This document shows, piece by piece, positions 14,683 to 49,871 of a DNA stretch of 64,000 bases. The notes beneath the pieces were generated by a model that worked only from the letters and a program-made list of their open reading frames with translations, was not told the DNA's origin and searched no databases. Position 1 is the first letter of the stretch. Each line of letters begins with the position of its first letter. A program made the translations under genes and the position numbers. Source of the DNA: Parcubacteria group bacterium Gr01-1014_8 (GTDB lineage: Bacteria > Patescibacteriota > Minisyncoccia > Phycocordibacterales > UBA2100); contig VMGC01000001.1 of NCBI GenBank assembly GCA_007376385.1, positions 64,001-128,000 of the forward strand, in the 5' to 3' direction.

Positions 14683-14686
14683 CTAG

Positions 14687-15421: not shown

Positions 15422-15422
15422 T

Positions 15423-30993: not shown

Positions 30994-32019
30994 TTAGAAG
31001 GGATTCCTCGGACCGCCACGGATCTCAAAGTGAACATGAGCGCCTGTCGACCGGCCGGTCGAGCCGACGTACCCGATGACTTGTCCTTGCACTACATGCT
31101 GGCCAACCCCGATGATGAGACTCGAAGCATGAGCATAGAGCGTTTGCGTGCCGTTGTCATGCTTGATGACAACGTACTCACCATACCCGCCGTTCCAACC
31201 AGTACCTTTAGAAACGATGACATCGCCAGGAGCAGATGCAAGGATTGGGGTCCCAGCAGGAGCCGCAAGGTCAACACCGTTATACCCGTGTATGCCCTGA
31301 GAACGGATGCCACCAACGATAGGTCGAAGATAGTACCCTGCGTATTGTGCAGAACTGCCTCCCGACGCTGATAATTTTGGAGTGGCCACCCGAGGCGCCG
31401 ATGCCAATTCACCGTCCGGAATGATGATCTCATCGCCCAACGTCAGCGACGAAGCCGCAATGCCGTTGAAATTTGCAATTTCATCCGCATCGCCATGGAA
31501 TACTTTAGCAATAGAAGCAAGCGTATCTCCCTTCTTAACTTTGTATTTAATACCCGTTACCGGAAGTATGGTTAGGGTCTGGCCGACTCGAATGGTGCCG
31601 CTTGCAGAGATATCGTTGGCCCATTTAATGGTATTCATCGACACGTCAAACATCTCTGCAATCTCCGAAAGCGTGTTGCCTTCCTGCACAACATATATGC
31701 TGATGGATTGATTCTTCGTCTTTACAATGTCCGCTATGGTGCCCGATGGACCTTCATCCGGAAGAAGCGCCGAATCATCGACAACGGTTACGTCACCACC
31801 GCCTTTAGATGGATTAGGGTCAATGTTCATTGCCGCTTTGGGAAGCGGCAACGTTTGTAGGTTCGGGATATTTTGTTCGAGGGCTTCGGCTTTCTTCTCT
31901 TGTGTCATGCTCTCTGTCATCGAGATAAGAAAGCTCCCAACTTTGCCTGCTCCCTCGGATAAGATGCCCAACATAGACGCATGCACCGTACTCGGCAGCA
32001 CCGTTCCTGCAAGAAGCAT
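30994..32019 (-). CDS. Secreted LysM-repeat M23-family metallopeptidase
   Basis: Start set at MLLAGTVLPSTVHA (signal peptide); the upstream in-frame part of the ORF is Arg-rich and not protein-like. Two LysM repeats (YVVQEGNTLSEIA..., YKVKKGDTLASIA...) and the M23 motif block (H..G.D.......I.A...G.V.....GYG..V.I.H..G..T.Y.H.....V..G..V..G..IG.VGSTG.STG.H.HFE). Confidence 0.8.
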   Translation of the reverse strand: MLLAGTVLPSTVHASMLGILSEGAGKVGSFLISMTESMTQEKKAEALEQNIPNLQTLPLPKAAMNIDPNPSKGGGDVTVVDDSALLPDEGPSGTIADIVKTKNQSISIYVVQEGNTLSEIAEMFDVSMNTIKWANDISASGTIRVGQTLTILPVTGIKYKVKKGDTLASIAKVFHGDADEIANFNGIAASSLTLGDEIIIPDGELASAPRVATPKLSASGGSSAQYAGYYLRPIVGGIRSQGIHGYNGVDLAAPAGTPILASAPGDVIVSKGTGWNGGYGEYVVIKHDNGTQTLYAHASSLIIGVGQHVVQGQVIGYVGSTGRSTGAHVHFEIRGGPRNPF

Positions 32020-32369
32020 AAGGGAAATGAAAGAAACGCCTGCCTTGCCGCGTCCAATCCTTCGTATGGTCTGAAGATATCCCCTTTGGGCTACTCCAGA
32101 ACGTGTTTTTTTGTACAAAATATGCCCTTTACGGTCTGTTAACCCGTCTCGTGCGAAAGATGTAGGCCTCTGTCTGAATCTCCTATGAAGGCCTGCACGA
32201 CAGGCCGGAGGATGATTGCCTAAATCTTCAATAACGATTGCGGTACAAAGCCGTTTTTTTGGGGTAGCTGGCCAGAAATGCGGGATTCTTTGGCTCAAAA
32301 TCTCACTTTTTTGAGATTCTCGCCTGACTGGAAAATCAGAATCGCTACCGCCTCTATAACTGTAGCCGG

Positions 32370-35200: not shown

Positions 35201-36145
35201 TTACCGTCCCGGCGTGGGAGACGCTTTATCTATCCAGTCTGACGCAGTGTCGGTGTCTCTTGTCGGCAAGCTTCTTGCCATTGAGTGCCCGTCAGGTACA
35301 ACAGGAACCGACGGACTGAACGCATTCGTGTTCGTGCCCCACGACGCTGCATCTGCGGGCGATGCAGAAATTGAACTGCGAATTCGTACCACATCTCCTC
35401 CATTCGTGAGTCCATTTCCGATGGAGCTACCTAGTATTACGACAACAGTGTCCGAAGGAATATTCCATTTATTCTTTGTATTTTCATTTGCGACAATGAG
35501 CATGTATTTTCCGGGCGCAAGCGTTGTGTTACTTGGCAGAGTATCGGAACCTCCTGCATTTTGGATGATCCAGCCTGAAAGATTTACCGTATTCCCAGTG
35601 CCGTTGTACAACTCCACCCATTCATTATCAGGATCGTCTCCATGTGCCCAGTCGACATCGTAGTAAATTTCATTGATCACAAGCTTCGGTGTCTCCGGAG
35701 GCGGCACAGGACTTGGCGATGGAGAGGGAGATGGCGAAGGTGACGGACTCGGGCCTGGGCTTGGACTTGGTGATGGATTTGGCGGCGGCCTGTATGCTGG
35801 CGCAGCCGGACCGCTCGAGCCCATCATCATTATGGAAATAGCAGGCTGCACATAAATGGGACTGACGGACCACAAGCAGTCATATGGAATACCCGTTAAC
35901 CCTAATAGCCACTGTCCTACATTGCGCGGCGGTCCGAACTGGTACGTTCTTGTCGAGCGCGTCCACACATAATCTCCGGGGACTGGCGGTGAGAGCCTTG
36001 TAAAAATTGTTTCGTTGTAGCAGACGTGATAGACCGTGATGCGCCCGCCGAACGGAAATGCAAGCGCGGGGGCGCTGAACAGCGCCCAGAAAAGCAGAGA
36101 CATCAATATGAACAAGGAAAGCTTCGACGCTAAAGCCATATGCAT
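35201..36145 (-). CDS. Secreted lamin-tail-domain (LTD) protein with (Pro-Ser)n linker
   Basis: N-terminal signal/TM; C-terminal LTD-like pattern (VINEIYYD...EWVELYN.....L.GW.I). Confidence 0.6.
   Translation of the reverse strand: MHMALASKLSLFILMSLLFWALFSAPALAFPFGGRITVYHVCYNETIFTRLSPPVPGDYVWTRSTRTYQFGPPRNVGQWLLGLTGIPYDCLWSVSPIYVQPAISIMMMGSSGPAAPAYRPPPNPSPSPSPGPSPSPSPSPSPSPSPVPPPETPKLVINEIYYDVDWAHGDDPDNEWVELYNGTGNTVNLSGWIIQNAGGSDTLPSNTTLAPGKYMLIVANENTKNKWNIPSDTVVVILGSSIGNGLTNGGDVVRIRSSISASPADAASWGTNTNAFSPSVPVVPDGHSMARSLPTRDTDTASDWIDKASPTPGR
35696..35785. repeat. Low-complexity (Pro-Ser)n coding repeat within LTD protein
   Basis: PNPSPSPSPGPSPSPSPSPSPSPSPVPPP; seen on the plus strand as ggcgatggagagggagatggcgaaggtgac repeats. 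Confidence 0.8.
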
Positions 36146-36289
36146 AGTCTAGCATCCACAAAATTACTCGATGCTCTACGCCGTGAGATAGGTGTAGATA
36201 TCGCTCTAAGCGAGTTTAACCGCGTCACAACAAAAAACTGTATATAACAAAACCTCACCTATATCTCATGGGGTATAATAGTTGTGCAT

Positions 36290-37180
36290 ATGCATTGGAT
36301 GGTCGCGCATATATATGTGACCGCACTCGTCGTTGTCGGACTTCTCCTCATCGCAGGTACCGCCCTCGTCACATCACGAACGCCTGTCGGCTCATCCCAA
36401 TCAGAAACAACGTGGGGAGGTGCAGGAGGCATCGCATTTTTGAATGCAATCGGGGGAAGAGCTGGTTCTTCACAAGGCCGCATAAAAACACAGCAACTGC
36501 TGGAACAGCAAGCGCAAGATCATACGCCAGTGAGCATCATACCCACAGATGGATCTGAAATATCACAGGGATATGCCGACATCGAATGGCAGTCGCTCCT
36601 CACACAACTGGTAAGACCGAAATCGACAACAGATGAAGTTGCGACAGAACCGGACGGGACTCCGAGCCTCTATTCTTTCATCCCAAGCGGTCTCATGAGT
36701 ACGACCGGTTCTGCGAAACAAAGAACGCCAGCGCAAGATGAGCTTTTCGAGTACGGAAACAGCGTCGGTTCATATATCCAAGGCTTTGATGATCTGCATG
36801 GGAACATGATACAAGTTTTGAAGGACGCATATGAAGATAGAAAAGATCCAGAAAAAATTGCACGCGCGATGCAAATAGGGGCAGATTATGTTCAATTGGG
36901 AAAAGAACTCGAAGAAATGGAAGTTGGACCTAAAGTGGTGCGATCAGCTCATCTTGCTCTTGCAAAAGCGTACCAGGTCGCGGGTTCGAATATGATCGCG
37001 AAGATGAAAACATCGAGCGACGAAGATTTCATTGCGGCAGTGAACACGTACAATCAGAGCGTCGAGGACTTTACAAAACGCTACATCGCACTCGTCACCA
37101 TATTTGAAGTGGCAGAGGTTCAATTCAGCCAAGACGATCCAGGAAAAGTATTCATGTTTCAGTCCGCACCGTCCCTCTAG
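36290..37180 (+). CDS. Hypothetical N-terminally anchored membrane protein (T4SS-like cluster gene A)
   Basis: N-terminal TM (VAHIYVTALVVVGLLLIAGTALV), otherwise no recognised domain. A perfect TATAAT sits at 36274-36279, only about 10 nt upstream of the first ATG (36290), so this may be a leaderless mRNA. The ORF-track start 36284 is GTG. Confidence 0.45.
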   Translation: MHWMVAHIYVTALVVVGLLLIAGTALVTSRTPVGSSQSETTWGGAGGIAFLNAIGGRAGSSQGRIKTQQLLEQQAQDHTPVSIIPTDGSEISQGYADIEWQSLLTQLVRPKSTTDEVATEPDGTPSLYSFIPSGLMSTTGSAKQRTPAQDELFEYGNSVGSYIQGFDDLHGNMIQVLKDAYEDRKDPEKIARAMQIGADYVQLGKELEEMEVGPKVVRSAHLALAKAYQVAGSNMIAKMKTSSDEDFIAAVNTYNQSVEDFTKRYIALVTIFEVAEVQFSQDDPGKVFMFQSAPSL

Positions 37181-37215
37181 CCAAAGACACGCGAAAGCGC
37201 TGGTATAATTCAAGC

Positions 37216-38055
37216 GTGGAAGGCGGAAGACCATCCTCCATTGTTATTACTGCCGGGCTTGCGGCAGCGATTTTGCTTTCCGCCATCGGCTGGCAGCTCG
37301 GCGGATACTGGGCCAAACATCACGTCGTAAAAAAACCAATTCAATTTGATAGAGCGCCAGATGAGACATCGAAAGCGCCCGTCATCGGCTCGATAAGCAA
37401 CGACTGGCGCGATGAGTTAGCGAGACTCGGACTAGTAAATACCACGACGGACGCAGCCGTTGCGACCTCCTCGGATCCACTCGCGACATTTGGCGATACC
37501 ATTGCTCAAGAATTCCTTACCACCTACCTGTCACTCAAACAATACGGCAGCTATTCCCCGGAAAAAGCTGCGCAACTAGGCAAAGCGCTCGGAAGTAATG
37601 CTCATGTTCCGACAAATTTCACATTACACGCAAGCAGCGAGCTGACCCTTGCTTCCGATACGTCAAAGGAGCGTATCTTGAAATATCGAAGCGAAATGCG
37701 AGATGCCTTACGCATGTTGGTAAATGGCTCGCCGCCAGAATTCGAAACATTGGCGCTCTATATTGAGACAAAAAACCCCGAGCGTCTCATTGAACTCTCG
37801 GAAGCGGCCGAACGCTATCGAGATGCGGAGAAAAATGCCCTCGCCGTGGTCGTGCCAAGCGATGCTGCTGAGCTTCACATCCGGGTCGTTAATGCGCTCG
37901 GTGCATATGGAAGCGCAGTGGATCAACTTGTCCGCAGTATGGCGAGCCCCGTCACCACTTTAGCGGTTTTGAGAACGTATAATGAGGCTGAGCGCGAAAT
38001 GCTCTACGCATTTGACGCGCTTGCTAGCTATTATGTACGAAAGAGTAGTCAGTAA
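37216..38055 (+). CDS. Hypothetical N-terminally anchored membrane protein (gene B, probable paralog of A)
   Basis: 279 aa; same N-terminal TM plus helical C-domain architecture as gene A; the C-terminal regions look weakly alignable. Confidence 0.45.
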   Translation: MEGGRPSSIVITAGLAAAILLSAIGWQLGGYWAKHHVVKKPIQFDRAPDETSKAPVIGSISNDWRDELARLGLVNTTTDAAVATSSDPLATFGDTIAQEFLTTYLSLKQYGSYSPEKAAQLGKALGSNAHVPTNFTLHASSELTLASDTSKERILKYRSEMRDALRMLVNGSPPEFETLALYIETKNPERLIELSEAAERYRDAEKNALAVVVPSDAAELHIRVVNALGAYGSAVDQLVRSMASPVTTLAVLRTYNEAEREMLYAFDALASYYVRKSSQ

Positions 38056-39697
38056 TTTTTACGGTGCCGCATTGCTGCTTCTTCTTGTAGCAATGATCTT
38101 TGGTTTTGACCTTCCGAATGCCCATGCCGCAGAATGCCGAGACGGAAAACTCTATGAAAAACTCGCCGACGGCACTGAAGTTCAAGCGGGCACGTGTGCA
38201 GACGGCAAAGATGTACCCGCATCCCAAAATGCACTTTTAAGAGACGGCATCTTTGGATGCAATGCGAGCAAATACGCAAACATCGGCACACTTTCTGCAG
38301 TTGGCGGCATCTATGTACCGGTCAACGACGCCGCGGTGACCATCAACACTGGTTATTTGGTTTACAAAGAGTGTATTCTCGACGGGGTTGTTTCAAAAAT
38401 AAGCGAAGCGGCCCGCACCGAGCTTGCAGGCACCATTATTCGCCAAATCAATACCGGCCGTGCGGGGCAAGCTCTCTTTGTAAAAAATATCGCGAAAGAA
38501 TTGGACGCACGCGCTGACAGGGTTGCCCTCACGGCTGTAGACAACGCGAATATCGGGGTGATGTGCCCGGCATTTCGCGATGATGTTCGTCGTATTCAGA
38601 TCCGCCGCTACTTGTCCGCCCGCAACTCTCCTAACTCCAGCTTTGCCTGCTCGGTTCCCGTTTCGGCAACAGACCATATAACTGCAATTCGCGCTGGGAT
38701 ATACGCGCCCGACGTACTCGATGCGCTCATCACGCCGGGAAATGACCCGTACACGGCTGATATGATCTTCAACGAATATATGAACGCTTCGATAGCAGAA
38801 GACGCCTATAACCAATATGCGCAGTGGGGATGGGGAAACGGCTTCTACCCGGTGACAACCGAAACAGATAATCCATTCGATGAAGAAACAATGACACCGG
38901 GCCATCTCGTCGCTCAAGGCGCCGCGCAGGTCATCACCGGCGGTTTTCGTTGTCTTGAAGAGGCAGACGAGCCGAGCAAAATATGCGGACCGATGTTCAA
39001 CGCGCTCGCTCAAGCAGCTCTTGACCGCGGTCTCACAGGATTAACACAGGCGCAGAACGGCTTGCCCTCGTATGTAAGCCGCATGGTGTCTGAAGCATCC
39101 GCTGCCGTTCGTCAAGAAGCGGTGAACGCCGCGCTCAATATACTCCTCACATCGAGGCAGATAGAAGCGGCGTACAAACGCGCAAAAGAGGGAATAGCGG
39201 AAGTTTTGACGGGGGCTATAAACAGACTTCGGAGTGCAGAACGAGCTTGTTGGGAGCTCATCATTCCTAAGGTAGAAGAATACGCGAGCACGCAAGGCGC
39301 CCAAATACAGGTCGCAACGACCACCGAATTCTCCCAGGCAGTCATCAACGACCAAATATTGCCCATCGCAGAGTTGGTCGCAGCAGACTTGCAAAAAGCA
39401 GAAAGGGCACTGCAGCAAATTGATAGCCTGATCGCGAGCGTATCGAATAGCGCATCTGCAACAAACCAGAGGGCCGCCCTTGAGCGGCTTGACACCATGG
39501 TCGCAAACGGCCAGCTTCACACTTCGAGTGATGCGACGAACGCTAATAAGCAATTAGAGGATGTGACTGCAAGCGCGAACACTCTCGTTGAAGAGACATT
39601 ACGGGCGTGGGGCGACTCAACTGACCCAAATGTCGGCTGGTGCAACGTGAACAACCCCGCCGTCATCGAGAAGTGGTTCAACAAATGGAAGAAATAA
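38033..39697 (+). CDS. Hypothetical secreted Cys-containing protein with C-terminal coiled coil (gene C)
   Basis: Start at MYERVV... (signal peptide ...LPNAHA/AE); 554 aa; about 10 Cys in the N-half, coiled-coil heptads in the C-half; overlaps gene B by 23 nt. Confidence 0.5.
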   Translation: MYERVVSNFYGAALLLLLVAMIFGFDLPNAHAAECRDGKLYEKLADGTEVQAGTCADGKDVPASQNALLRDGIFGCNASKYANIGTLSAVGGIYVPVNDAAVTINTGYLVYKECILDGVVSKISEAARTELAGTIIRQINTGRAGQALFVKNIAKELDARADRVALTAVDNANIGVMCPAFRDDVRRIQIRRYLSARNSPNSSFACSVPVSATDHITAIRAGIYAPDVLDALITPGNDPYTADMIFNEYMNASIAEDAYNQYAQWGWGNGFYPVTTETDNPFDEETMTPGHLVAQGAAQVITGGFRCLEEADEPSKICGPMFNALAQAALDRGLTGLTQAQNGLPSYVSRMVSEASAAVRQEAVNAALNILLTSRQIEAAYKRAKEGIAEVLTGAINRLRSAERACWELIIPKVEEYASTQGAQIQVATTTEFSQAVINDQILPIAELVAADLQKAERALQQIDSLIASVSNSASATNQRAALERLDTMVANGQLHTSSDATNANKQLEDVTASANTLVEETLRAWGDSTDPNVGWCNVNNPAVIEKWFNKWKK

Positions 39698-39707
39698 CAA
39701 TGAGCAT

Positions 39708-42104
39708 ATGAAGGCTTTCTTGAGAACAGCGAAATATAAAGGGAAGACCATGACGGTAATACTCTTATTATTGTTCTTGTTCCCAATTATTCTCGGAATA
39801 TTTACCCCCGCGACCGCAGCGGCGGCTGAGGAATGTCCCCCAGGCCAAATTTGGGATCCTGGTGAAGATTATGGCGCAGATGTTAGTAGACCAGGTAGGG
39901 CTCCCGGCTGTGTACCAAACACGGCCGAAAACAAAACCGTAATCGCAACGCAGGAAGCACGTCCGGACACAACGGTCGGCCCTGGCGAATGTACTCGCTG
40001 GTGGCATCCCCTCACGCAGCCCATCAACTGCGCGTTCATACCGCTCGCAAGCTGGTCTGGGGCACTCTTCATGTCATTTGGAGCCGCGCTACTGCAGGCG
40101 TCCGGGGCTGTTTTCAATACTCTGGTGAAGTGGATAGTTGTCGAGTTCGGCAGCACCATACAAACGCTCGGCCTCTTGGACGGAATACACCAGGCATGGG
40201 AGATCTTGCGTGACATTTCGAACATCGTCATCATCGGCATGTTCGTCTTTATTGCCATATCGATGATACTGGGGAACGAGACATTCGGAGCAAAAAAATT
40301 AGTCGCGCACGTCCTCATCATCGCCGTCCTGATAAATTTTAGCTTGCTTTTCTCGAAGCTCATTATTGATGCTGGAAACTTTACTGCATACCAATTTTAC
40401 AAAGCCATGGGGGGTACCGCAGACGATGAGTTCGACATTGCGGGCAGATTTTACAGCGTCGTCGGTATAACAAGCGCATGGGACAGCTTTGCCGTTGCCG
40501 AACGCTTCGCGCGCGGCTCGCAAAAAGCAGGTACAAAGCCAGGAGAAAGTAGCACGACGGGTAACAATTTTGCCGCCGGCGTAAGCGGTTTCTTGTACGG
40601 CATATTCGGCGGGATGCTGCTCATCGCATCCGCTATCGTTTTATTCTACGGCTCATATCTCATCATCGTCCGAGCCGTCCTCCTCGTTTTTCTTATGCTT
40701 GTTTCCGCACTCGCATTCGCATCATGGCTCGTACCAAAAATGAACAGTGGCAGCATCAGTTTCAGTGCATGGTGGAAATCGCTCATCAATGCTTCAGTGT
40801 TCGCGCCGCTCCTTATGATCATGCTCTACGTATCACTCCTCATCATGAACCCTGCAGCAGGAAAACGAGAAGGGAGCTTAGGCGCTATCGCAGGTAACCC
40901 GGAAAAAGTGGGGCAAAACTGGAAGACGCTTATCATTTTTATCTTCGGCATCGGCATGCTCTACGTGTCGTTCAAGGTCGCGAACACATTCTCGAGACAG
41001 ATAGCCGGGTTTAGCGTAGCGAGCGGCGCCGTCGGCAAGGCATTTGGAGCAACGGCGGGTACAGCCGGACTTTTTGGCCGCTACTCGCTGGGACTCCTAG
41101 GCTCACAGCTCGCTGCGAGAACTGGGCTTGGCACAATGGACGGCCTCAAAGGCAGGATAGCGCGTGCTGGATTAAGTTCTCTTGCTACAGGCAGTTTTGA
41201 CGTGCGTCGCATCCCTGGCGTTGCCTCCGGCGCAAAATACGGCGTAGATTTTGGTAAAGCAAAAGGAGAAGGCGGATACCTCAAGGCTGTTTCCGATAGA
41301 GAAAAGAGAATAATCGCAACGGAAGCAGGATATCGCCAGATGGTGACCACAAAAACAAACTCCGACTTTAAGGAAGAGCGTTTGCTTGAAGAACAGAAGC
41401 AGGCTGCCGCGAAGCGAATTAGAGAACAAGAAGCTCGTGCGGCAGAGCTTTCTAAACACCCTGCAGTCGCAGGCAAGCCTGCTGAAAAAGCTCAGCCAAC
41501 TCCAGCACCAGCCACGCAAGGCGCTTACGGTAGAACGCAGACCGCGCGCGATATCGCGGACGCTCAGCAACGGCAAGCGCAAACTGCAGCAGCTGGAAAA
41601 GAAGAAGGAAAGATCTCGACAGACGCAGAAACGGCTCGAATTGCTCGCATCGAACGGGGTCTACGAGCAGAAGAGAAACAAAGCTATCTTACCGAAGGCC
41701 AAGTAAGGTCTGCCGCACAAGCTACTCTTGCCGCAGGCGTTGCACCGACCGATGAAAACAGGGCAGTCGTTGAGGAATTACGAAAGGTGCGAGAATCCAT
41801 CACTGCCGAAAAAGAATTGCTAGCGCGTCTGGAAAAAACACCCACATCAAGAGATATCCGTGGACAGAAGTTCGATGACGCTATGAGGAATAGCTTCTAC
41901 TTCTTGGACTTCAGCAAACACCGCACGGCTGCTCGCGCAGAAAAGATAGCAGAGACGGCACGCAAGACAGACTATCAGAAGCTTGCTGAACGATTGGCAA
42001 AAGATATGGAGGATGTCGCCAAAAAAGAAGGAAAAAAGACTGCCGACGTAGTAAAAGAGGCAGTCGAAAAAGCGGCAGGGCCTGCTAAGGAGGCCGGACA
42101 CTAA
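39708..42104 (+). CDS. VirB6/TrbL-like polytopic membrane protein with Cys-rich N-terminal ectodomain and long charged C-terminal tail (gene D)
   Basis: 798 aa; signal peptide, Cys-rich about 100-aa segment, then about 6-7 TM helices in a TrbL/VirB6-like arrangement, then an about 330-aa K/E/A/R-rich predicted coiled-coil tail. Assignment is by topology and synteny with PrgI/VirB4, not strong sequence identity. Confidence 0.5.
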   Translation: MKAFLRTAKYKGKTMTVILLLLFLFPIILGIFTPATAAAAEECPPGQIWDPGEDYGADVSRPGRAPGCVPNTAENKTVIATQEARPDTTVGPGECTRWWHPLTQPINCAFIPLASWSGALFMSFGAALLQASGAVFNTLVKWIVVEFGSTIQTLGLLDGIHQAWEILRDISNIVIIGMFVFIAISMILGNETFGAKKLVAHVLIIAVLINFSLLFSKLIIDAGNFTAYQFYKAMGGTADDEFDIAGRFYSVVGITSAWDSFAVAERFARGSQKAGTKPGESSTTGNNFAAGVSGFLYGIFGGMLLIASAIVLFYGSYLIIVRAVLLVFLMLVSALAFASWLVPKMNSGSISFSAWWKSLINASVFAPLLMIMLYVSLLIMNPAAGKREGSLGAIAGNPEKVGQNWKTLIIFIFGIGMLYVSFKVANTFSRQIAGFSVASGAVGKAFGATAGTAGLFGRYSLGLLGSQLAARTGLGTMDGLKGRIARAGLSSLATGSFDVRRIPGVASGAKYGVDFGKAKGEGGYLKAVSDREKRIIATEAGYRQMVTTKTNSDFKEERLLEEQKQAAAKRIREQEARAAELSKHPAVAGKPAEKAQPTPAPATQGAYGRTQTARDIADAQQRQAQTAAAGKEEGKISTDAETARIARIERGLRAEEKQSYLTEGQVRSAAQATLAAGVAPTDENRAVVEELRKVRESITAEKELLARLEKTPTSRDIRGQKFDDAMRNSFYFLDFSKHRTAARAEKIAETARKTDYQKLAERLAKDMEDVAKKEGKKTADVVKEAVEKAAGPAKEAGH

Positions 42105-42108
42105 ATCT

Positions 42109-42657
42109 ATGGCTGACGATATAAAAAAGGTACTTGAGGAGCGTTTCAATTCACTGCCAGATGCCGTGCAAAAGGCCATTCTTTCCGGCCATATCCAGGA
42201 AAAATTTCAGGAGTTGGCAAGAAAGCACCAGCTGCATGTCGACGCGTGGCAACAAGTCGAGAACAAAATAATGCTGACGGTGCTCGGCGTCATACAGCCT
42301 GAAGAGCTGGTCGACAAAATAGTGAACGAAACCAATGTTGGTGCGGAGAAGGCGGCTACCATCGTGAGCGACATCGCTCTTTCAGTCTTTAAGCCAATTC
42401 GGGAAGAACTTGAGAGAGAGTTGGGACATCCTCAAGCGAGAGAAGAAGTCATATCGGACATAGAGAAAGTCCGACAAGAAGTGTTATCACAGGCGCCTGC
42501 ACCCCAAGTAGCGGCTCCTGTACCTGCAACACCCCCAAATCCGCTGCCGACTGAAAAAGTTGCCCGCGCTCCCGCTTCAGGCGCATACAAACCAGGAGAG
42601 ACGAGCGTCGAGAGAGCAGATGTTCACGACGACCCTTACAGGGAGCCGCCTCTCTGA
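42109..42657 (+). CDS. Hypothetical soluble acidic protein (gene E)
   Basis: 182 aa, no TM, Pro/Ala-rich C-terminus; starts 5 nt after gene D stop. Confidence 0.45.
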   Translation: MADDIKKVLEERFNSLPDAVQKAILSGHIQEKFQELARKHQLHVDAWQQVENKIMLTVLGVIQPEELVDKIVNETNVGAEKAATIVSDIALSVFKPIREELERELGHPQAREEVISDIEKVRQEVLSQAPAPQVAAPVPATPPNPLPTEKVARAPASGAYKPGETSVERADVHDDPYREPPL

Positions 42658-42797
42658 AGAGTTTGCTCACAATACGTACAGAAGATGCGTAACGTACTAA
42701 ACTCATTGTAGTACAATGGTGAGACTGCTAGGGAAATCGAGCATACGCTGCTTGTTGGTCAGCAGTATCTTCTGTGTTGCTCCCTAGGCTTTGATAC

Positions 42798-43298
42798 ATG
42801 CAATTTCAAGTACCCCAATTTATTGAGGTCGAGGATAAGATATTCGGTCCACTCACCTTTAAGCAATTCGTCTATGTCGCAGGAGGCGGCGGATTGGCCT
42901 ACCTCATCTGGCGGGTACTCCCCATCTATCTCGCGGCGCCGCTCGTCGCAGGCTCCCTTGGTCTCGGAGCAGCCCTCGCTTTTATGCAGTACAACGGGCG
43001 CCCCTTCATTCTCGCTCTTGAGCACGGCTTTTATTTTTTTCTGCGTTCGAAACTCTACTTATGGAATAATCAGCGGCGAAACAAGAAGCTGGCGGCGTCT
43101 GCAAACGAGCAACATCAACAGACACCAGAAATTTATGTGCCGAAGCTGTCGGAGAGCAGGTTGCACGAACTTGCGTGGAGCCTCGACATCAAGGAGCGGA
43201 TCGCTGCTGGTGTTGCGAATGAGGATGATAGAAATGAAATGCCTCGTTCCCGGCTCGTTGCTCCTATTCGAACCGCCCGCAGCGCTTTAGTGCAATAA
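42798..43298 (+). CDS. PrgI-family (VirB3-like) small membrane protein
   Basis: The N-terminus FQVPQFIEVEDKIFGPLTFKQFVYVAGGGGLAYLIW plus two TM helices matches the PrgI family, which precedes VirB4 in Gram-positive-type T4SS. Confidence 0.6.
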   Translation: MQFQVPQFIEVEDKIFGPLTFKQFVYVAGGGGLAYLIWRVLPIYLAAPLVAGSLGLGAALAFMQYNGRPFILALEHGFYFFLRSKLYLWNNQRRNKKLAASANEQHQQTPEIYVPKLSESRLHELAWSLDIKERIAAGVANEDDRNEMPRSRLVAPIRTARSALVQ

Positions 43299-43304
43299 TA
43301 GAGT

Positions 43305-43976
43305 ATGTCAGAGATCACATCATCAATACCGCGCGTGAGCAGCAAAGCAACCCAAGATTTTGTGCCCGTGCATGAAGTTCGGGATGGCGTCGTTGTCCTC
43401 AAAGATGGAGGCCTTCGAGCAATACTCCTAGCCTCGTCATTGAACTTCGCACTGAAATCCGAGGACGAGCAAACCGCATTTATCGTTCAATTCCAGAATT
43501 TTCTCAACTCACTGGATTTTTCCGTACAGATATTCGTGCAATCACGAATGCTCGACATACGCCCCTACATCGCCACCTTGGAGTCACAGTTCAAACAACA
43601 ATTGGACGACCTTATGCGCATACAGATACGCGAATACATCGGCTTCATAAAAAGCTTCACTGAAGCCGCTAACATCATGACGAAGAATTTCTTTATCATC
43701 GTGCCGTACTCGCCCGCGATCATCCAAACCGGTCAAGGAATACTCGGCAAATTGCCCTTTACCGGCAAAAAGAAAAATTCTGAAGAAGAGAACCGCACTT
43801 TTGAAGAACAAATATCGCAGCTCGAGCAGCGCATCTCCATCGTCCAGCAGGGGCTCATCCGCACCGGCGTCCGCACCGTCCAGCTTGGAACTGAGGAAGC
43901 GATAGAATTGATGTACAAAATGTTCAACCCCGGTGAAGAAGGGAAGCCAATGGCCGTTCCTGAATCGCAAAAATAG
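43305..43976 (+). CDS. Hypothetical protein between prgI-like and virB4 (gene G)
   Basis: 223 aa soluble; stop TAG 43974-43976 and virB4 ATG at 43978. The N-terminal part (VPVHEVRDGVVVLKDGGLRAILLASSLNFALKSEDEQ) weakly recalls VirB4/TrbE N-terminal segments. Confidence 0.45.
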   Translation: MSEITSSIPRVSSKATQDFVPVHEVRDGVVVLKDGGLRAILLASSLNFALKSEDEQTAFIVQFQNFLNSLDFSVQIFVQSRMLDIRPYIATLESQFKQQLDDLMRIQIREYIGFIKSFTEAANIMTKNFFIIVPYSPAIIQTGQGILGKLPFTGKKKNSEEENRTFEEQISQLEQRISIVQQGLIRTGVRTVQLGTEEAIELMYKMFNPGEEGKPMAVPESQK

Positions 43977-43977
43977 T

Positions 43978-45969
43978 ATGGCGCTCCTCGATCTATTCAA
44001 GAAAAAAGGGCCGCAGTCCGTAGTCTTGCCCGTATTGCCTGAAGAGATATTCCGCACGGGAGTTCTTGACCTTCAAGACGTCATCGCACCTCACGCTCTC
44101 CGCATTTCACCTCGCGAACTCGACCTTGGGGAAAAGATCGCACGCACATTCTTCGTTATCTCGTATCCGCGTTTTCTTACGACAGGATGGTTCGCGCCCA
44201 TCATTAACATGGATAAAATAATCGACATTTCGATATTCATTCACCCGATGGATACGAATGAAATGCTTCGAAAATTCCAAAAGAAAGTGGCAGAGGTTCA
44301 GAGCCAGATATCAACGCGGGAAGGGAAGGGCATGGTCAGAGACCCTATGCTTGACACCGCCTACGCTGACCTTGAAAAATTGCGTGATTCACTCCAGCAA
44401 GCACAGGAGCGCATCTTTGAAGTAGGATTGTATCTCACCATTTACGGCTCCACTCGCGAAGAAGTTGATAAGATAGAAAGCGAGGTACGCTCAATTCTTG
44501 AATCGCGCCTTGTGTATATCCGTCCCGCGCTATTCCAGCAAGAGCAAGGCTTCAGAAGCGTTCTGCCGACGGCAACCGATGAACTGAATGTGCACACAAA
44601 ATTGAATTCAGCCCCTCTTTCATCGGTATTTCCGTTCATTTCCTTCGACCTGACGTCCGACCGGGGAATTCTATATGGCATAAACCGCCATAATTCATCT
44701 CTCATTCTTTTTGATCGCTTCTCGCTTGAGAACTACAATTCAGTGACCTTTGCCAAGTCCGGTGCGGGAAAATCCTACACGACAAAACTTGAGATCCTGC
44801 GTTCGTTGATGTTCGATACAGAAGTCATCGTCATCGACCCCGAACGTGAATACGAATATCTCGCAGAGACGGTCGGCGGACGTTATTTCAATATCTCACT
44901 CTCCTCGGAGCACCACATCAATCCCTTTGACTTGCCGATACCGCGAGAAGATGAGAACCCCGGGGATGTGCTGCGCAACAATATCATCACGCTTGTCGGA
45001 CTTTTCCGTATCATGCTCGGAGGTTTGACGCCCGAAGAAGACGCCATCATCGACAAGGCCATCACCGAAACGTATGCCCTGAAAGACATCACGCAAGATG
45101 CGAATTTCGCAGCAGTCGAGCCGCCGCTTCTTTCCGACTTCGAACTCGTACTCTCCGGCATGGAGGGCAGCGATTCACTGGTTCAGAGACTCTCGAAATA
45201 TACAAAGGGCACGTGGTCAGGATTTATGAACCGCCCGACGAACGTTGACATGAATAAAAAATTGGTCGTCTTCTCGGTGCGAGACATGGAGGACGACCTG
45301 AAACCTGTCGCTATGTACATCATCACGCACCACATCTGGAATACCGTGCGAAAGGAACTCCGTAAACGACTCCTGGTGATCGATGAGGCATGGTGGATGA
45401 TGCGTTCCCAAGATACTGCGTCTTTCCTGTTTTCAATCGCAAAACGTGGACGTAAATACTATCTTGGAATCTCTACCATCACGCAAGACGTATCAGACTT
45501 TTTGAACTCCCCGTATGGAATACCGATGATAACCAACTCTTCTATCCAGCTCCTGCTCCGCCAATCGCCAACATCGGTCGACCTCGTGCAACAGACATTC
45601 AAATTGTCAGACGAGGAAAAATACCTGCTCTTGGAATCCGATGTAGGTGAAGGCATTTTCTTCGCAGGGCTGAAGCACGTAGCCATAAAAGTCATTGCTT
45701 CGTATACGGAAGACCAAATAATCACGTCCGACCCATCGCAGATACTTGCCATCCGCAAAGCGAAACAGGAACTGGTCTTGGCAAACGAGCCACAGAATGT
45801 AGCCCAGACGACCCCGATATCTCAAACCAAGGAAGCGGCCGCTATACTCCAAAGCTCGGCGTTAAAACCCGCTGAAGTGCCAAATACGCCAACGCCGCAG
45901 GCATCACCAACATCCGCGCCAAATACTACCCGACAAGTAGCATCAATTTTGGAGAGACCGGGTAATTGA
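43978..45969 (+). CDS. virB4: VirB4/TrbE/CagE-family type IV secretion ATPase
   Basis: 664 aa from MALLDLFKKK.... Gram-positive-type VirB4 N-terminus (L.D.IAP...IG....RT..V..YPR), Walker A FAKSGAGKS, Walker B LLVIDEAW, conserved C-terminal motifs. Confidence 0.85.
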   Translation: MALLDLFKKKGPQSVVLPVLPEEIFRTGVLDLQDVIAPHALRISPRELDLGEKIARTFFVISYPRFLTTGWFAPIINMDKIIDISIFIHPMDTNEMLRKFQKKVAEVQSQISTREGKGMVRDPMLDTAYADLEKLRDSLQQAQERIFEVGLYLTIYGSTREEVDKIESEVRSILESRLVYIRPALFQQEQGFRSVLPTATDELNVHTKLNSAPLSSVFPFISFDLTSDRGILYGINRHNSSLILFDRFSLENYNSVTFAKSGAGKSYTTKLEILRSLMFDTEVIVIDPEREYEYLAETVGGRYFNISLSSEHHINPFDLPIPREDENPGDVLRNNIITLVGLFRIMLGGLTPEEDAIIDKAITETYALKDITQDANFAAVEPPLLSDFELVLSGMEGSDSLVQRLSKYTKGTWSGFMNRPTNVDMNKKLVVFSVRDMEDDLKPVAMYIITHHIWNTVRKELRKRLLVIDEAWWMMRSQDTASFLFSIAKRGRKYYLGISTITQDVSDFLNSPYGIPMITNSSIQLLLRQSPTSVDLVQQTFKLSDEEKYLLLESDVGEGIFFAGLKHVAIKVIASYTEDQIITSDPSQILAIRKAKQELVLANEPQNVAQTTPISQTKEAAAILQSSALKPAEVPNTPTPQASPTSAPNTTRQVASILERPGN

Positions 45970-46027
45970 CCTCCAAAACATACTGAAGCTAAGGATTAAC
46001 ATCAGACGTTGAAAAACGACTCAATTC

Positions 46028-46468
46028 ATGGATGAAAATCCTCTAGACCAGGTACCAAGTGACGAGGTCGCTGAGTTATCGGTCATGGATCCGCAAGAGG
46101 AGCCTGACTTTCCATTCGTCATCGTGGCAACGGCCGTTCTAAAAGACCTGCTAGACGGATTGGATCTATCTATCATCTTCATAATCCTGACGACTGTATT
46201 ATCCGTTCTGCTGACAATAATTTTGTTCCTATGGGTTGTCGGTAAATTGGGTGGCGGCTGGTGGAAGCGGCAGTTAATAAGATGGTTGTGGACTCGGTAC
46301 GTAGCAACAATTCTTTTAGAATTTATCCCGTTTCTCAAGATGGTACCAGCGGCCACAATTTTCGTTCTCATGGCCCATCACCACGAGAAAAAATCTGTGA
46401 AATTATTCAATGCAGCCTTGGAAGCCTTCCGCGACGGATTATTCAAGGCGCTGCGACAAAAAAACTGA
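46028..46468 (+). CDS. Small polytopic membrane protein (possible VirB2-like pilin candidate)
   Basis: 146 aa; acidic N-terminus then 2-3 TM helices; directly downstream of virB4. Confidence 0.35.
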   Translation: MDENPLDQVPSDEVAELSVMDPQEEPDFPFVIVATAVLKDLLDGLDLSIIFIILTTVLSVLLTIILFLWVVGKLGGGWWKRQLIRWLWTRYVATILLEFIPFLKMVPAATIFVLMAHHHEKKSVKLFNAALEAFRDGLFKALRQKN

Positions 46469-46569
46469 ACGCCTGAAGGGACCCCCTGGTGGCTGCAGAT
46501 CGTTTGCCAATTGCCTGGAATTCACCGCCCTAACATGCAAAACAAATAAGGGATGAAGTCGGCTGTATA

Positions 46570-47619
46570 ATGATGCCAATGTCATCGCGGTTGTTCTTCA
46601 GTATTCCGGCGTTCGCTCTTTTGTTACTTTTTGCTGCGCCCGTATACGCACAATACATCCTTCCTCCTTCTGCTGACCCAATATTATTCAAGCTTAGTCC
46701 TTCGAATCCCGAGCCCGGCTCAATCGTCCATATTTTTGCAAATAGTCTGACATTTGACCTCAAAAAGACTCACGTAACATGGTACGTAAATGACGCTCTG
46801 CTACTTGAAGGCGACGGTCTTACGGAAGTTGATGTGACGCTTGGCTCAACAGGTTCTGCAACTCACGTCATTGCTCTCGCTGAGAAAGACGGCGAGACGC
46901 TGGCCAGCGCAGAAGTATTCATGCGCCCCGCAGAAGTTGATCTCTTGTGGGAAGCGAATTCATATGTTCCCCCCTTCTATAAGGGGAAACATCTCGCTTC
47001 ACCAAATTCGGTAGTTCGTGCAGAAGCCTATGCGCGATTGCGCGATCAAGAGGGAAATCTGATACTGCCTTCCGAAATCGAGTATACATGGCACCGTAAC
47101 GGCGCACTGCTCGCGTCCCAATCCGGCCGAGGGAAATCTTACGCCTCTTTCCCTGCTCCGCTCCTATTCGGAAGCGACACAATATCAGTCGAGGTAACCT
47201 CGATAGATGAGAGTGTGAGTGCTAGCGCGACAACTATTATTCCCTCCGTGGACCCATTTGTCGTCCTCTATCAGGAACATCCTCTGTTTGGGATCTTTTA
47301 TCACGCAGCTGTTGCACGTGCTGCATTCCTGCCAGACGTCGAAGCGACGTTCGTTGCCATTCCATATTTTGCGAGCAGCATCACGAGCCACTCCGACGCA
47401 AGACTATTATATGCCTGGCGCGTGAACGACAGGCCAATAACAGTGGATGGAGCAGAGCCTCATCGCTTGACCATCAATGCTGAAAATTCAACGGGAGAAG
47501 CGCACGTCGAAGTCGCTGTTTCGCACCTCACTAACTACTTTATGGACGCTCGCGGAGCGTGGGACATAGCATTCGACAGAATACCGGGCGGGGACCCATT
47601 CTCCACAAACGGACTATGA
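46570..47619 (+). CDS. Secreted protein with three tandem about 100-aa Ig-like repeats
   Basis: Signal peptide (…AAPVYA/QY); repeated modules starting VTWYVNDALL, YTWHRNGALL and YAWRVNDRPI. Confidence 0.5.
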   Translation: MMPMSSRLFFSIPAFALLLLFAAPVYAQYILPPSADPILFKLSPSNPEPGSIVHIFANSLTFDLKKTHVTWYVNDALLLEGDGLTEVDVTLGSTGSATHVIALAEKDGETLASAEVFMRPAEVDLLWEANSYVPPFYKGKHLASPNSVVRAEAYARLRDQEGNLILPSEIEYTWHRNGALLASQSGRGKSYASFPAPLLFGSDTISVEVTSIDESVSASATTIIPSVDPFVVLYQEHPLFGIFYHAAVARAAFLPDVEATFVAIPYFASSITSHSDARLLYAWRVNDRPITVDGAEPHRLTINAENSTGEAHVEVAVSHLTNYFMDARGAWDIAFDRIPGGDPFSTNGL

Positions 47620-48980
47620 TTCATACGGATATTTCCCGCATATTCAAGTACGCAAGTATCGGGCTCATCTTCGTTCTTATTATAGGGCTTGGCGGATGGT
47701 ACATATACTTGCGCACGCAAACATCATCAATTGACGCGGCGTCAAGCGGACGCGGGTTCCGCGCGAGCATTCCCACTTCAAGTTCGCTGGGGAGTACTTT
47801 CACCAACATAATTTCCGGATTCAGAAGAACCCCCAGTGAAGCGAGCGAAAATCCGCCAGGAATAAGCCCGCAAAGCTTTTCGAGTGGTATTTCTAACTTT
47901 TCCGAAGGCGTAAAAACTGCGTTCGGTAACTTGATATCAGGACTCGGCTCCCTCGTCCCTGGTTCCGCAAGCTCAACGCCGATAAAACAAACCCCTCGTC
48001 TTTGGCAGGTGCAAAAAAGCCCCGTCGCTGGATTCAGGTTCATCGCTGCAACAACGACAACGCTTCGCTTTATGGAACGCTCAAGCGGCTATATTTTCGA
48101 CGTGAACCCGGCGACAGGGAAAACAACGCGAGTAACAAATACTCTTATCCCGAAAGTATATGATGCACGGTTCGCCAGGGACGGTTCTCCGGTTATAAAA
48201 ACTCTTGAAAACGACGTGCGGACAACCTATAGCGCGACATTAGCATCAAGTTCGAACGAAACTCTTGCCACACTCGTTCTAACGCCGCTAGGAAATAACG
48301 TGGCAGATGCAGTACCAAACGCTACATCACGCGAGCTTCTCTCGCTCATCGAAAGTGAGAATGGATCCTCTATTGTGCGCTCAGGATGGAACGGCTCTAA
48401 ACCAACGACGCTCTTTAGCTCATCGCTCTCGGGATGGAGAATGTACTGGACCTATGACAACAAGGTCTACATCGCGCAAAAAGCGGCGACAGGAGTCCCA
48501 GGTAACGCGTACGAACTTCTTGGCAATGGAGAACTTGTTCCACTAGCGCGTTCTGTTTCGGGGCTCACGATAGTGCCAAAAGCAACTTCTACTGCTCTGC
48601 TTATTGCTTCTGATGCTGGCGTTGTGTCTACCCTTGTCAGGCCAAATGCTGACACAGCGTTCATAATACTACCCGTGAAGACGATAGTCGACAAATGTCT
48701 ATGGGCTCCAGGAAATAATCTGATCGCGTATTGCGCAGTGCCATCGAGCATTCCTTCAAAACAATTCTTGGATGAGTGGTATCGAGGGGAGATACATACG
48801 GCTGACTCGTGGTGGCGCGTTGACGCGAGCGCAGGCTCGGCGCAATTGCTGTTTTCGCCCGCGCGCGAGAGCGGCTCTTCGCTTGATGCGGAAACCCCGA
48901 GAATAGACAATAGCGGGACGTACATAGCATTCCTCGATTCACATGACAAGTCACTGTGGATACTGCGCATCAATGAATAG
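47616..48980 (+). CDS. N-terminally anchored extracytoplasmic protein (possible beta-propeller)
   Basis: ATGA start/stop overlap with the upstream gene (translational coupling); one TM (ASIGLIFVLIIGLGGWYIY), Ser/Gly-rich linker, large C-domain. Confidence 0.5.
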   Translation: MIHTDISRIFKYASIGLIFVLIIGLGGWYIYLRTQTSSIDAASSGRGFRASIPTSSSLGSTFTNIISGFRRTPSEASENPPGISPQSFSSGISNFSEGVKTAFGNLISGLGSLVPGSASSTPIKQTPRLWQVQKSPVAGFRFIAATTTTLRFMERSSGYIFDVNPATGKTTRVTNTLIPKVYDARFARDGSPVIKTLENDVRTTYSATLASSSNETLATLVLTPLGNNVADAVPNATSRELLSLIESENGSSIVRSGWNGSKPTTLFSSSLSGWRMYWTYDNKVYIAQKAATGVPGNAYELLGNGELVPLARSVSGLTIVPKATSTALLIASDAGVVSTLVRPNADTAFIILPVKTIVDKCLWAPGNNLIAYCAVPSSIPSKQFLDEWYRGEIHTADSWWRVDASAGSAQLLFSPARESGSSLDAETPRIDNSGTYIAFLDSHDKSLWILRINE

Positions 48981-48982: not shown

Positions 48983-49138
48983 ATGAAAAAAGTTGCATCT
49001 AAGGTGCGCAGCGCGCGGAAGACGTTCGCATTTATCTCCCTTTCCGGCCTGAATGGTCCGGAATTCGCTCCGTTCCTCACCGCCGCGTTCAATAGCCAGA
49101 ATTTTCCCACATTCGTGAACGCTCTCTTTAAGGGTTGA
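48983..49138 (+). CDS. Small ORF (51 aa), paralog 1 of duplicated module
   Basis: MKKVASKVRSARKTFAFISLSGLNGPEFAPFLTAAFNSQNFPTFVNALFKG*; starts 2 nt after the upstream gene's stop; contains the 99-bp repeat. Confidence 0.3.
   Translation: MKKVASKVRSARKTFAFISLSGLNGPEFAPFLTAAFNSQNFPTFVNALFKG
49035..49133 (+). repeat. 99-bp perfect direct repeat, copy 1
   Basis: tctccctttccggcctgaatggtccggaattcgctccgttcctcaccgccgcgttcaatagccagaattttcccacattcgtgaacgctctctttaagg is identical at 49645..49743. Confidence 0.9.
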
Positions 49139-49589
49139 ACATTGTGGGCAGGATGAAGCCACTTCCTGCCGCTCCGAGGCTTCCTACGAGCACCGCGCCT
49201 GCGGAAAGCACTTTTACCCCGCCAGACCCGGATCAAACTGTGGTCGCCCCCGTGAATAGCAACGTTGATCGATGGTGTACAACATCAAGTTCTGGAGGAG
49301 CCACACTATGTTTTACCGGGCCTCAAGCGCAGCGAAATTGCAACGCGCAATACGCATCAAGAGGCATCGATAGGCAGTGCACGTCCTTCCCAGCTCAATA
49401 AAGGTTCCTCGGAGCAAGCTCTGAGGTATTGAACCTGTGTTTGCGCATATTGCCCATTTAAAAATAATCATACATCGCTAGAGATGCCCTGCACTCGCGA
49501 TATAATAGAACTGCAGACAACTATAGTGCCTTGCTGCCAGACATTACGACATGCGTAAAGATATGTGTTCGCGACCTGCCTCGCGTACA

Positions 49590-49871
49590 ATGAAAAAAAT
49601 ATTGTCCAAGTTTCGGGAGCTGCCTCACGCGTTCCAGGGTTTCGTCTCCCTTTCCGGCCTGAATGGTCCGGAATTCGCTCCGTTCCTCACCGCCGCGTTC
49701 AATAGCCAGAATTTTCCCACATTCGTGAACGCTCTCTTTAAGGAACAATTCACGCAACCGCCTGCACAGAATTCGTTCTTCGGAGGAGCAGGCGGACAAT
49801 TTGATCCTTCGCTCAATGGAGTTGGCGTCTCAGGTAATGAAATAGGGAACCCAAACCCATCATCACCGTAG
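49590..49871 (+). CDS. Small ORF (93 aa), paralog 2 of duplicated module with Gly-rich C-terminus
   Basis: MKKILSKFRELPHAFQGFVSLSGLNGPEFAPFLTAAFNSQNFPTFVNALFKEQFTQPPAQNSFFGGAGGQFDPSLNGVGVSGNEIGNPNPSSP. It shares the SLSGLNGPEF...FVNALFK core with paralog 1. Confidence 0.35.
   Translation: MKKILSKFRELPHAFQGFVSLSGLNGPEFAPFLTAAFNSQNFPTFVNALFKEQFTQPPAQNSFFGGAGGQFDPSLNGVGVSGNEIGNPNPSSP
49645..49743 (+). repeat. 99-bp perfect direct repeat, copy 2
   Basis: Identical to 49035..49133 by eye over about 99 nt; the flanks diverge. Confidence 0.9.

Follow-up and report, generated by a model that had tools for sequence, protein, structure and literature searches.

Patescibacteria may make up a quarter of bacterial diversity and are obligate epibionts. 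Of all type IV secretion systems (T4SSs), theirs alone is known to be one that its own bacterium needs in order to grow. The cluster described here consists of eleven genes, designated A to K, at 36284-48980 of a 64,000-nt stretch of DNA (the window) taken from the metagenome-assembled genome (MAG) of Parcubacteria group bacterium Gr01-1014_8 (GCA_007376385.1, contig VMGC01000001.1, positions 64,001 to 128,000). The homologous locus of Southlakia epibionticum was found by transposon sequencing (Tn-seq) to be essential for epibiotic growth (Wang et al. 2023, PMC10633639). The S. epibionticum T4SS resembles the T4SSs that Gram-positive bacteria use in conjugation and includes essential pilins, and recognisable coupling or relaxase proteins are missing from it (PMC10633639). 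In a survey of 3,035 genomes, VirB4 was detected in 2,417, and these sequences grouped monophyletically inside MPF-FATA (Quinonero-Coronel et al. 2025, PMC12102498). TrsD was the commonest partner in that survey, PrgI/VirB3, VirB6, VirB2-like pilins and pilin arrays were also recorded, and almost no relaxases were found; in Paceibacteria the T4SS was located near dnaA, dnaN, ksgA, rnpA and rpmH (PMC12102498). A 2025 review describes the T4SSs of Patescibacteria as unique among monoderms (PMC12857230).

Assignment of the locus

The region very probably represents a vertically inherited chromosomal T4SS of the Patescibacteria clade, a relaxase-less derivative of MPF-FATA in the Kaiserbacteria/Paceibacteria arrangement near the replication origin. 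The lineage is Parcubacteria group within the Patescibacteria group, the VirB4 is of the MPF-FATA type, a TrsD-like gene stands beside virB4, and a PrgI/VirB3 gene is present. No relaxase or type IV coupling protein (T4CP) gene was found within 64 kb plus 10 kb on each side, and the surroundings are those of dnaA, dnaN and ksgA. A VirB2-like pilin near virB4 is present in the organism and in the lineage, the window itself holding only pilin fragments without the hairpin. An initial annotation of the window had read the region as a T4SS-like and probably non-conjugative apparatus, a reading borne out by the PrgI and VirB4 profiles, by the VirB6-like fold of D and by the missing relaxase and T4CP. 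The same annotation had likened the cluster to poorly characterised minimal VirB4/VirB6 sets of host-associated bacteria with reduced genomes; the system is not one of the Rickettsia kind but the Patescibacteria-clade T4SS, which has a literature of its own (PMC10633639, PMC12102498, PMC12857230).

The locus shares VirB4, TrsD, PrgI/VirB3, a VirB6-like protein and VirB2-like pilin(s) with SEML1_0006-0019 of S. epibionticum, as well as the chromosomal position near dnaA, the monoderm type of VirB4 and the lack of a relaxase or T4CP nearby. Unlike the Saccharibacteria locus, it is arranged in the Kaiserbacteria manner, six of its conserved partners (A, B, C, E, J and K) have no annotation, and no peptidase or lysozyme gene follows directly downstream of virB4. 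The pilins of the Saccharibacteria locus form a six-gene array, whereas here one pilin gene follows K in relatives, with two tandem copies suggested for this organism.

Components of the core

Gene H is assigned by its profile matches to the VirB4 ATPases of the monoderm CD1110/MPF-FATA type. It matches the NCBIfam model conju_CD1110 (VirB4-like conjugal transfer ATPase) with 358.5 bits against a cut-off of 325, over model positions 185-733 of 752; lower scores were obtained with the models for VirB4 of the Mycoplasma integrative conjugative element (ICE; 251), TraC-F (195) and VirB4_CagE (112). A match to Pfam P-loop_TraG was also recorded (E 1.5e-23). The Walker A motif (AKSGAGKS) is encoded at nt 44752-44775 and the Walker B motif (LLVIDE) at nt 45370-45393, as expected from the initial annotation of H as a VirB4 ATPase with both motifs intact. 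The nearest solved structure is VirB4 of the monoderm Thermoanaerobacter (4ag5, E 1e-41), with TrwK of R388 at E 1e-6. Orthologues of H from about 67 Paceibacteria genomes are 78-93% identical to it, whereas the best plasmid homologues outside the candidate phyla radiation (CPR), from Bacillota and Actinomycetota, reach 29-36%.

The protein encoded by G, directly upstream of H, is the detached N-terminal domain of VirB4, of TrsD-like type, because it matches positions 2-118 of the CD1110 model, the N-terminal region of other VirB4 models (VirB4_plasma positions 100-234, E 3.7e-10) and TrsD/TraD (NF041427, E 1.9e-5). Orthologues of G carry PF26593 TraC-like. As a single sequence, G gave nothing meaningful against PDB sequences. 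Its size of 223 aa had been given correctly, but its earlier description as a protein of no named family gives way to the TrsD-like assignment by NCBIfam. The protein encoded by F matches Pfam PF12666 PrgI (E 5.4e-10, 40.1 bits, cut-off 27), in agreement with its earlier placement in the PrgI family.

The product of D has a signal or anchor segment, an ectodomain with four Cys, a helical transmembrane (TM) core at about residues 100-430 with at least six hydrophobic helices in residues 105-432, and a charged helical tail of 333 aa (63 K+R, 50 D+E). The gene is located two genes upstream of prgI. Foldseek searches with D returned several TrwI chains among the top matches, with a probability of up to 0.96. 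D is regarded as VirB6-like by predicted fold, topology and position, because similarity to VirB6/TrbL or PrgH is lacking at the sequence level. Of its earlier description as a VirB6/TrbL-like polytopic protein, the topology, the Cys ectodomain, the charged tail and the fold stand, and the agreement with sequence profiles does not. VirB4 had been expected to remain an isolated ATPase if D failed VirB6 profiles and F also failed PrgI; D fails its profiles and F passes. The cytoplasmic-membrane core of the system consists of H (VirB4), G (TrsD-like), F (VirB3/PrgI) and D (extended VirB6-like).

Genes for conjugation and mobility

No relaxase, VirD4/TcpA, VirB11 or SLT hydrolase was found among the open reading frames (ORFs) of at least 140 aa in the window, in line with the statement in the initial annotation that relaxase, VirD4/TraG, VirB11 and lytic transglycosylase are not visible there. 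The 10 kb beyond either window end, where VirD4 and relaxase homologues of an ordinary ICE might have been located, hold housekeeping and type IV pilus (PilB) genes and no relaxase or T4CP. SLT or CHAP domains of VirB1-like hydrolases were not found in A to K. Conjugation is unlikely because relaxase and T4CP are missing. The search for integrase and att sites, proposed earlier as a check for horizontal acquisition, gave as the sole recombinase of the window an Xer-type tyrosine recombinase at 16139-18358 (-), 18 kb upstream of the cluster, and no att-like repeats were seen apart from the 99-nt repeat in the pilin region. The Xer-type gene encodes a Phage_integrase domain and an N-terminal SAM-like domain and is interrupted by an intein with a LAGLIDADG homing endonuclease domain. 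PilB-like genes (MshEN plus T2SSE) are present at the right end of the window (63441-63890, minus strand) and about 9 kb beyond its left end, and the genome therefore has a separate pilus system.

Synteny and conservation

A profile of the D family was used to search for relatives, with one genome per species, and 80 loci were obtained, almost all of them from MAGs of Candidatus Kaiserbacteria or Paceibacterota. The conserved order is M23/LysM(-), UvrD, KsgA, lamin-tail-domain (LTD) protein(-), A to H, J, K, a small gene, Jag(-), YidC(-), RnpA, RpmH and DnaA. This order is kept wherever the contig reaches and recurs in about 60-75 of the 80 species-level genomes, which answers the earlier question of synteny in relatives; each cluster gene was found in 62-82 loci. 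Such recurrence is far beyond chance. Orthologous loci also carry rnpA and rpmH at the dnaA side, with about 60 loci sharing the order. Many of the related MAGs are titled 'uncultured Candidatus Saccharibacteria bacterium', show Kaiserbacteria-type synteny and encode a D that is 30-47% identical; these record names are probably coarse pipeline labels, and the genomes not true Saccharibacteria.

In the window, the upstream flank encodes PNPase, a ComM-like ATPase, adenylosuccinate synthetase, the LysM/M23 peptidase, UvrD/PcrA and KsgA, and the downstream flank Jag, YidC, DnaA, DnaN, PBP1, RuvC and RuvB. KsgA ends 1.1 kb upstream of A, and Jag, YidC, DnaA and DnaN lie 0.9-4.4 kb downstream of K. 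From these housekeeping flanks, the cluster is placed about 3 kb from dnaA, beside the replication origin. The GC content is 0.506 in the cluster and 0.493 in the window, and the GC content at third codon positions (GC3) of the cluster is within the range of the housekeeping genes; the shift in GC or codon usage that had been proposed as a sign of acquisition is not present. Judged by gene order and composition, the block is vertically inherited chromosomal DNA and not an island.

The median identity to the window protein differs strongly among the genes (Table 1). The value of 89% for VirB4 (H) compared with 78% for DnaA indicates that the ATPase core is under stronger constraint than the replication initiator; UvrD and YidC each have 60%, and KsgA 56%. 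The medians for A, B, C, D, J and K are 32-38%, and the predicted extracytoplasmic parts diverge fast.

Pilin genes downstream of K

In at least 61 related loci, K is followed by a gene for a protein of about 160 aa with a signal peptide and a two-helix hairpin. An alignment of 27 rows (25 locus pilins and the two fragments of the window) was scanned, and PF18895 T4SS_pilin matched 22 of the 27 rows and TrbC/VirB2 four rows. For the two window fragments, the match to the pilin hidden Markov model (HMM) is confined to its N-terminal part (E 0.002 and 0.004). Both stop exactly where TM1 is expected to start, and the TM hairpin is missing from both. A perfect 99-nt direct repeat has one copy in each fragment (49035-49133 and 49645-49743).

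An ENA contig of the same organism is identical to the window over 19.4 kb and diverges at 49135. Past this point it continues as ...NALFKGAISIGAIIAVLQ up to its end, and this sequence corresponds to TM1 of the pilin (HMM E 1.4e-13). Another ENA contig, which approaches from the side of jag, starts with HIMRDAMVGLLLLMGIWLILRQINPQLLELN..., corresponding to TM2 (HMM E 2.4e-19). On both sides, the ENA contigs (with k139 as the prefix of their names) extend exactly 139 nt into the shared sequence before they break off, and a Logan contig stops 30 nt into the shared repeat. Contig breaks of k-mer size imply an exact repeat of at least 278 nt that is present twice. The slot in the window most likely results from a wrong join between two tandem pilin genes with an identical centre, an artefact of MAG assembly. 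Because the independent assemblies carry the TM1 and TM2 segments, the organism is regarded as having intact VirB2-like pilins. The pilin genes of the deposited MAG are thus probably mis-assembled, which matters for pilin counts made from MAGs. The span first given for the cluster holds for the eleven genes and not for its end at 48980, since the pilin gene remnants continue over 48983-49871.

Extracytoplasmic and accessory proteins

No relatives of A, B, C, E, J or K were found in Pfam, NCBIfam or PDB sequences; the comparison with PDB sequences was made with profiles of the whole family for A, B, C, J and K, and it gave nothing meaningful. A and B each have one N-terminal TM segment, as annotated at first; their kinship as paralogues is weak and confined to the C-terminal part (hhalign of the two families E 8.9e-5, probability 60%, over the last ~90 residues). 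The description of C as a secreted Cys-rich protein of 554 aa agrees with its signal anchor and ten Cys; it belongs to a large family without annotation. E has no TM segment, as expected of a soluble acidic protein, and all of its Pfam matches are sub-threshold. The three repeats of J are supported by comparison of its thirds with one another (hhalign E 1.4e-9 and 3.4e-7), with weak Ig_3/BiPBP_C matches in 3-4 of 25 orthologues; the immunoglobulin (Ig)-type matches are weak. K is an anchored protein with a single N-terminal TM segment and a large ectodomain, as first annotated, and gave no Pfam match among 25 orthologues and no match to PDB sequences.

Gene I is missing from most loci, in which the gap between H and J is usually -3 nt. 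I-like membrane proteins of 101-146 aa occupy the slot between H and J in about 9 of 64 loci and share the short C-terminal motif E-F/A-I/V-P-F...P-A/W-W. The initial suggestion that I could be a pilin was rejected, since the pilin HMM gives no match, the gene is sporadic in its slot, and VirB2-like pilin genes follow K.

Gene layout and neighbouring features

The eleven ORFs of the cluster are all on the plus strand, with intergenic gaps of -74 to 140 nt, and the tight co-directional packing noted initially was found in full. The same genes appear in independent gene calls made on another assembly of the same organism, and the start codons of C (38033, 554 aa), H (43978, 663 aa), J (46573) and K (47616) follow these calls. 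D corresponds to G01um10148_98 and C to G01um10148_97 (100% identity). The coordinates are given in Table 1.

Table 1. Genes of the T4SS cluster and associated features in the window; median identity of orthologues to the window protein, with the number of loci in parentheses
Feature	Position (strand)	Length (aa)	Description	Median identity
A	36284..37180 (+)	298	N-anchored bitopic protein; alternative start ATG 36290; TM at residues 3-33	33% (68)
B	37216..38055 (+)	279	N-anchored bitopic protein; distant A paralogue in the C-terminal ~90 residues	32% (72)
C	38033..39697 (+)	554	Helical protein, secreted or anchored; 10 Cys, 4 invariant	
D	39708..42104 (+)	798	Extended VirB6-like polytopic membrane protein	
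E	42109..42657 (+)	182	Soluble acidic protein; Pro-rich tail; conserved cluster member	40% (76)
F	42798..43298 (+)	166	PrgI/VirB3-family membrane protein; TM hairpin ~33-63	63% (70)
G	43305..43976 (+)	223	TrsD-like protein; free-standing homologue of VirB4 N-terminal domain	79%
H	43978..45969 (+)	663	VirB4 ATPase without N-terminal domain, which G supplies	89%
I	46028..46468 (+)	146	Small membrane protein with 2-3 TM; sporadic accessory gene in the H-J slot	
J	46573..47619 (+)	348	Secreted protein; three ~105-aa beta-rich Ig-like repeats	38% (64)
K	47616..48980 (+)	454	N-anchored protein; one TM, large ectodomain	35% (62)
Pilin slot	48983..49871 (+)		Garbled VirB2-like T4SS pilin gene(s); two N-terminal fragments	
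LysM/M23	30994..32298 (-)		LysM + M23 peptidoglycan endopeptidase; Pfam Peptidase_M23 E 2.4e-29, LysM E 2.7e-23	
LTD	35201..36145 (-)		Lamin-tail-domain protein, divergent from gene A; Pfam LTD E 6.3e-16	

In the segments 36264-36286 and 37196-37218, TATAAT boxes end 4-6 nt 5' of the GTG starts of A and B, and the box preceding B is an extended -10 element (TGGTATAAT). This suggests that the transcripts of A and B are leaderless or have a very short leader, or that the true start codons are slightly downstream. Scanning the cluster for promoters and terminators gave no more of them than shuffled sequences did, or fewer. An Rfam scan of the window detected four tRNAs only.

The LysM/M23 peptidase, the hydrolase closest to the cluster, 4 kb upstream of it with uvrD and ksgA intervening, is encoded at the same position in 52 loci. 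By analogy with VirB1, it is a candidate cell-wall remodelling partner; M23/LysM-containing VirB1-like proteins have been noted in Patescibacteria (PMC12102498). For the LTD protein, a BLAST match was obtained at the same position in 65 loci, with more than half of the protein covered in eight; it is a conserved neighbour that may be a surface protein and may be linked to the cluster in function.

Farther upstream, 9692-16142 and 18485-19411 encode an ABC transporter of the branched-chain amino-acid type, two TrmB-like flanking regulators and a homoserine O-succinyltransferase. With ORF 14687-15421 outside the scan, the transporter genes found encode two solute-binding proteins, two permeases and an ATPase (ORF 15261-16142). 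Metabolic genes such as these go beyond what CPR genomes are often supposed to contain.

Comparison with other type IV secretion systems

The MPF-FATA systems of the CD1110/CTn2 and pCF10 Prg/Pcf type were represented by the Clostridium perfringens plasmid pSXP-169_2 (NZ_CP143494.1). What it shares with the window is a CD1110-family VirB4 (29-36% identity), PrgI as the next gene upstream of virB4, and a gene for a polytopic membrane protein before PrgI, although this membrane protein has no sequence similarity to D. On the plasmid, MobC, relaxase and the VirD4-like CD1115 protein come first, followed by two small genes, PrgI, a VirB4 of 783 aa that is not split, and an SLT transglycosylase; relaxase and coupling protein are encoded 1.5-5 kb upstream of PrgI, and no pilin is present. 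In contrast, the window is without MobC, relaxase, the VirD4-like protein and SLT, its VirB4 is split into G and H, and it has VirB2-like pilin genes. The staphylococcal Trs systems of pGO1/pSK41 likewise encode a separate small homologue of the VirB4 N-terminus (TrsD) beside the VirB4 gene, but are plasmid conjugation systems with relaxase and T4CP. The pGO1 subclass was reported to be without a VirB6 homologue (PMC12102498).

The R388 Trw and Agrobacterium VirB systems (MPF-T) have pilins of the VirB2 family and equivalents of VirB3 and VirB4 in common with the present locus. Their outer-membrane core of VirB7, VirB9 and VirB10 is not present here, nor are VirB8, VirB11, VirD4 or a recognisable VirB5; the VirB4 proteins are distant (TrwK, E 1e-6), and D is about three times the length of TrwI. 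The reduced T4SS of Rickettsiales resembles the locus in its host-dependent reduced genome, its chromosomal and non-conjugative nature and a VirB6-like protein with a large hydrophilic extension. The Rickettsiales systems are of the MPF-T type, belong to diderms and retain VirB8-11 and VirD4 (covered in part by PMC2653234). The system of the window is neither MPF-T nor diderm, and VirB8-11 and VirD4 are not present in it.

Proposed function and alternative explanations

In the proposed mechanism, G and H would make up a VirB4 hexamer that docks on F (VirB3) and D (VirB6) at the cytoplasmic membrane and uses ATP to pull pilin from the membrane, so that a pilus or conduit could be built on the VirB6 platform. 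These docking and pilin steps are drawn from the biology of R388 and Gram-positive T4SSs (PMC12102498, PMC12857230). A, B, C, J and K may form a wall-spanning scaffold and the parts in contact with the host, replacing VirB8, VirB5, VirB1 and adhesins. The machine would mediate contact-dependent exchange of macromolecules with the host bacterium and not conjugation, with cargo that may move in one direction or the other (export of effectors or import of host material). This proposal fits the finding that the homologous system is essential when S. epibionticum grows as an epibiont.

Several results weigh against the assignment or parts of it. D gave no match with the VirB6/TrbL profiles of Pfam and NCBIfam, a Pfam scan of 34 members of the D family gave no TrbL match, the D-family profile found no VirB6 chain among PDB sequences, and hhalign of D with the clostridial plasmid membrane protein at the PrgH position gave a probability of 0.3%. 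The predicted model of C had no specific fold match, and no VirB8-like or VirB1-like protein was identified within the cluster. The roles suggested for A, B, C, E, J and K are drawn wholly from topology and conservation. The pilin genes in the window itself are without the hairpin, and if this is real the strain would have no local pilin. A T4CP could be encoded elsewhere in the genome; distant VirD4 homologues are reported from many Patescibacteria (PMC12102498).

The VirB4, PrgI and TrsD families are typical of monoderm conjugative elements, and a tyrosine recombinase gene is located 18 kb upstream (16139-18358), as might be expected of a decayed ICE, or its transfer module, that has lost relaxase, T4CP and integrase. 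That origin is very improbable: the same housekeeping neighbours recur in about 60-75 of 80 related species genomes, the composition shows no shift, VirB4 exceeds DnaA in conservation, contrary to what decay would bring about, no att-like repeats were seen except the pilin repeat, and the recombinase is Xer-like and bears an intein, with housekeeping genes between it and the cluster. A horizontally acquired island or ICE remnant is effectively refuted by synteny, composition and conservation. An organelle for adhesion only, in which a VirB2 pilus would attach to the host without translocating a substrate, would be compatible with pilin genes as part of the conserved cluster, with the absence of a substrate-recruiting T4CP among the window ORFs of at least 140 aa and with the fast, adhesin-like divergence of the surface proteins J (Ig-like repeats) and K. 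It is nevertheless improbable, since the genome already encodes type IV pili (PilB/T2SSE at and beyond the window end), which mediate adhesion in Saccharibacteria (PMC12857230), and since the T4CP-less Ptl and Brucella VirB systems still secrete proteins (PMC12102498); the large charged cytoplasmic tail of D and the conserved soluble E also suggest cytoplasmic partners.

A functional variant of the same apparatus would act mainly as an importer, with a pilus-tipped conduit taking up host nucleic acids or other macromolecules in the manner of archaeal Ced and of Helicobacter ComB DNA uptake, and would feed a cell unable to make nucleotides, amino acids and lipids. Import was explicitly proposed and favoured for the Patescibacteria T4SS (PMC12102498), and a 2026 preprint describes feeding on host RNA and, where parasite and host meet, tubular structures that may be T4SS pili (10.64898/2026.06.21.733656). 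No relaxase or T4CP that could recruit outgoing DNA was found in the 64 kb plus 10 kb on each side. H has a weak NCBIfam match to the DNA import protein CedB (E 6e-9), but this is far below the cut-off and spans the shared P-loop region only. The sequence gives no indication of the direction of transport, Pfam and NCBIfam revealed neither nuclease domains nor domains for binding nucleic acids among the cluster proteins, and the comEC-independent essentiality seen in S. epibionticum proves import by the T4SS no more than it excludes it (PMC12857230). Predominant import is considered possible but somewhat unlikely. Also held to be rather unlikely is the proposal that A, B, C, E, J and K together with D and the pilins form a lineage-specific extracellular module, a new pilus-bearing architecture of monoderm T4SS whose fast-diverging parts (32-38% compared with 89% for VirB4) would set the host range and which would import host macromolecules and not export DNA.

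Implications

The assignment to the Patescibacteria-clade T4SS adds no new kind of system. The system, including its origin-proximal position and the absence of a relaxase, was already described in 2023-2025 (PMC10633639, PMC12102498), and novelty is low because the component set and the dnaA/ksgA neighbourhood were published as well; all features singled out as remarkable in the initial annotation are thus on record already. The window provides a clean, well-conserved example from Paceibacteria, in which the core combines VirB3 with a VirB4 split in two and a protein that is VirB6-like in structure, and VirB4 is more conserved than DnaA. The remaining interest lies in the conserved proteins A, B, C, E, J and K that this lineage encodes, which were left unannotated in the published survey (PMC12102498). 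This fast-evolving set of surface partners could guide structural or host-range studies.

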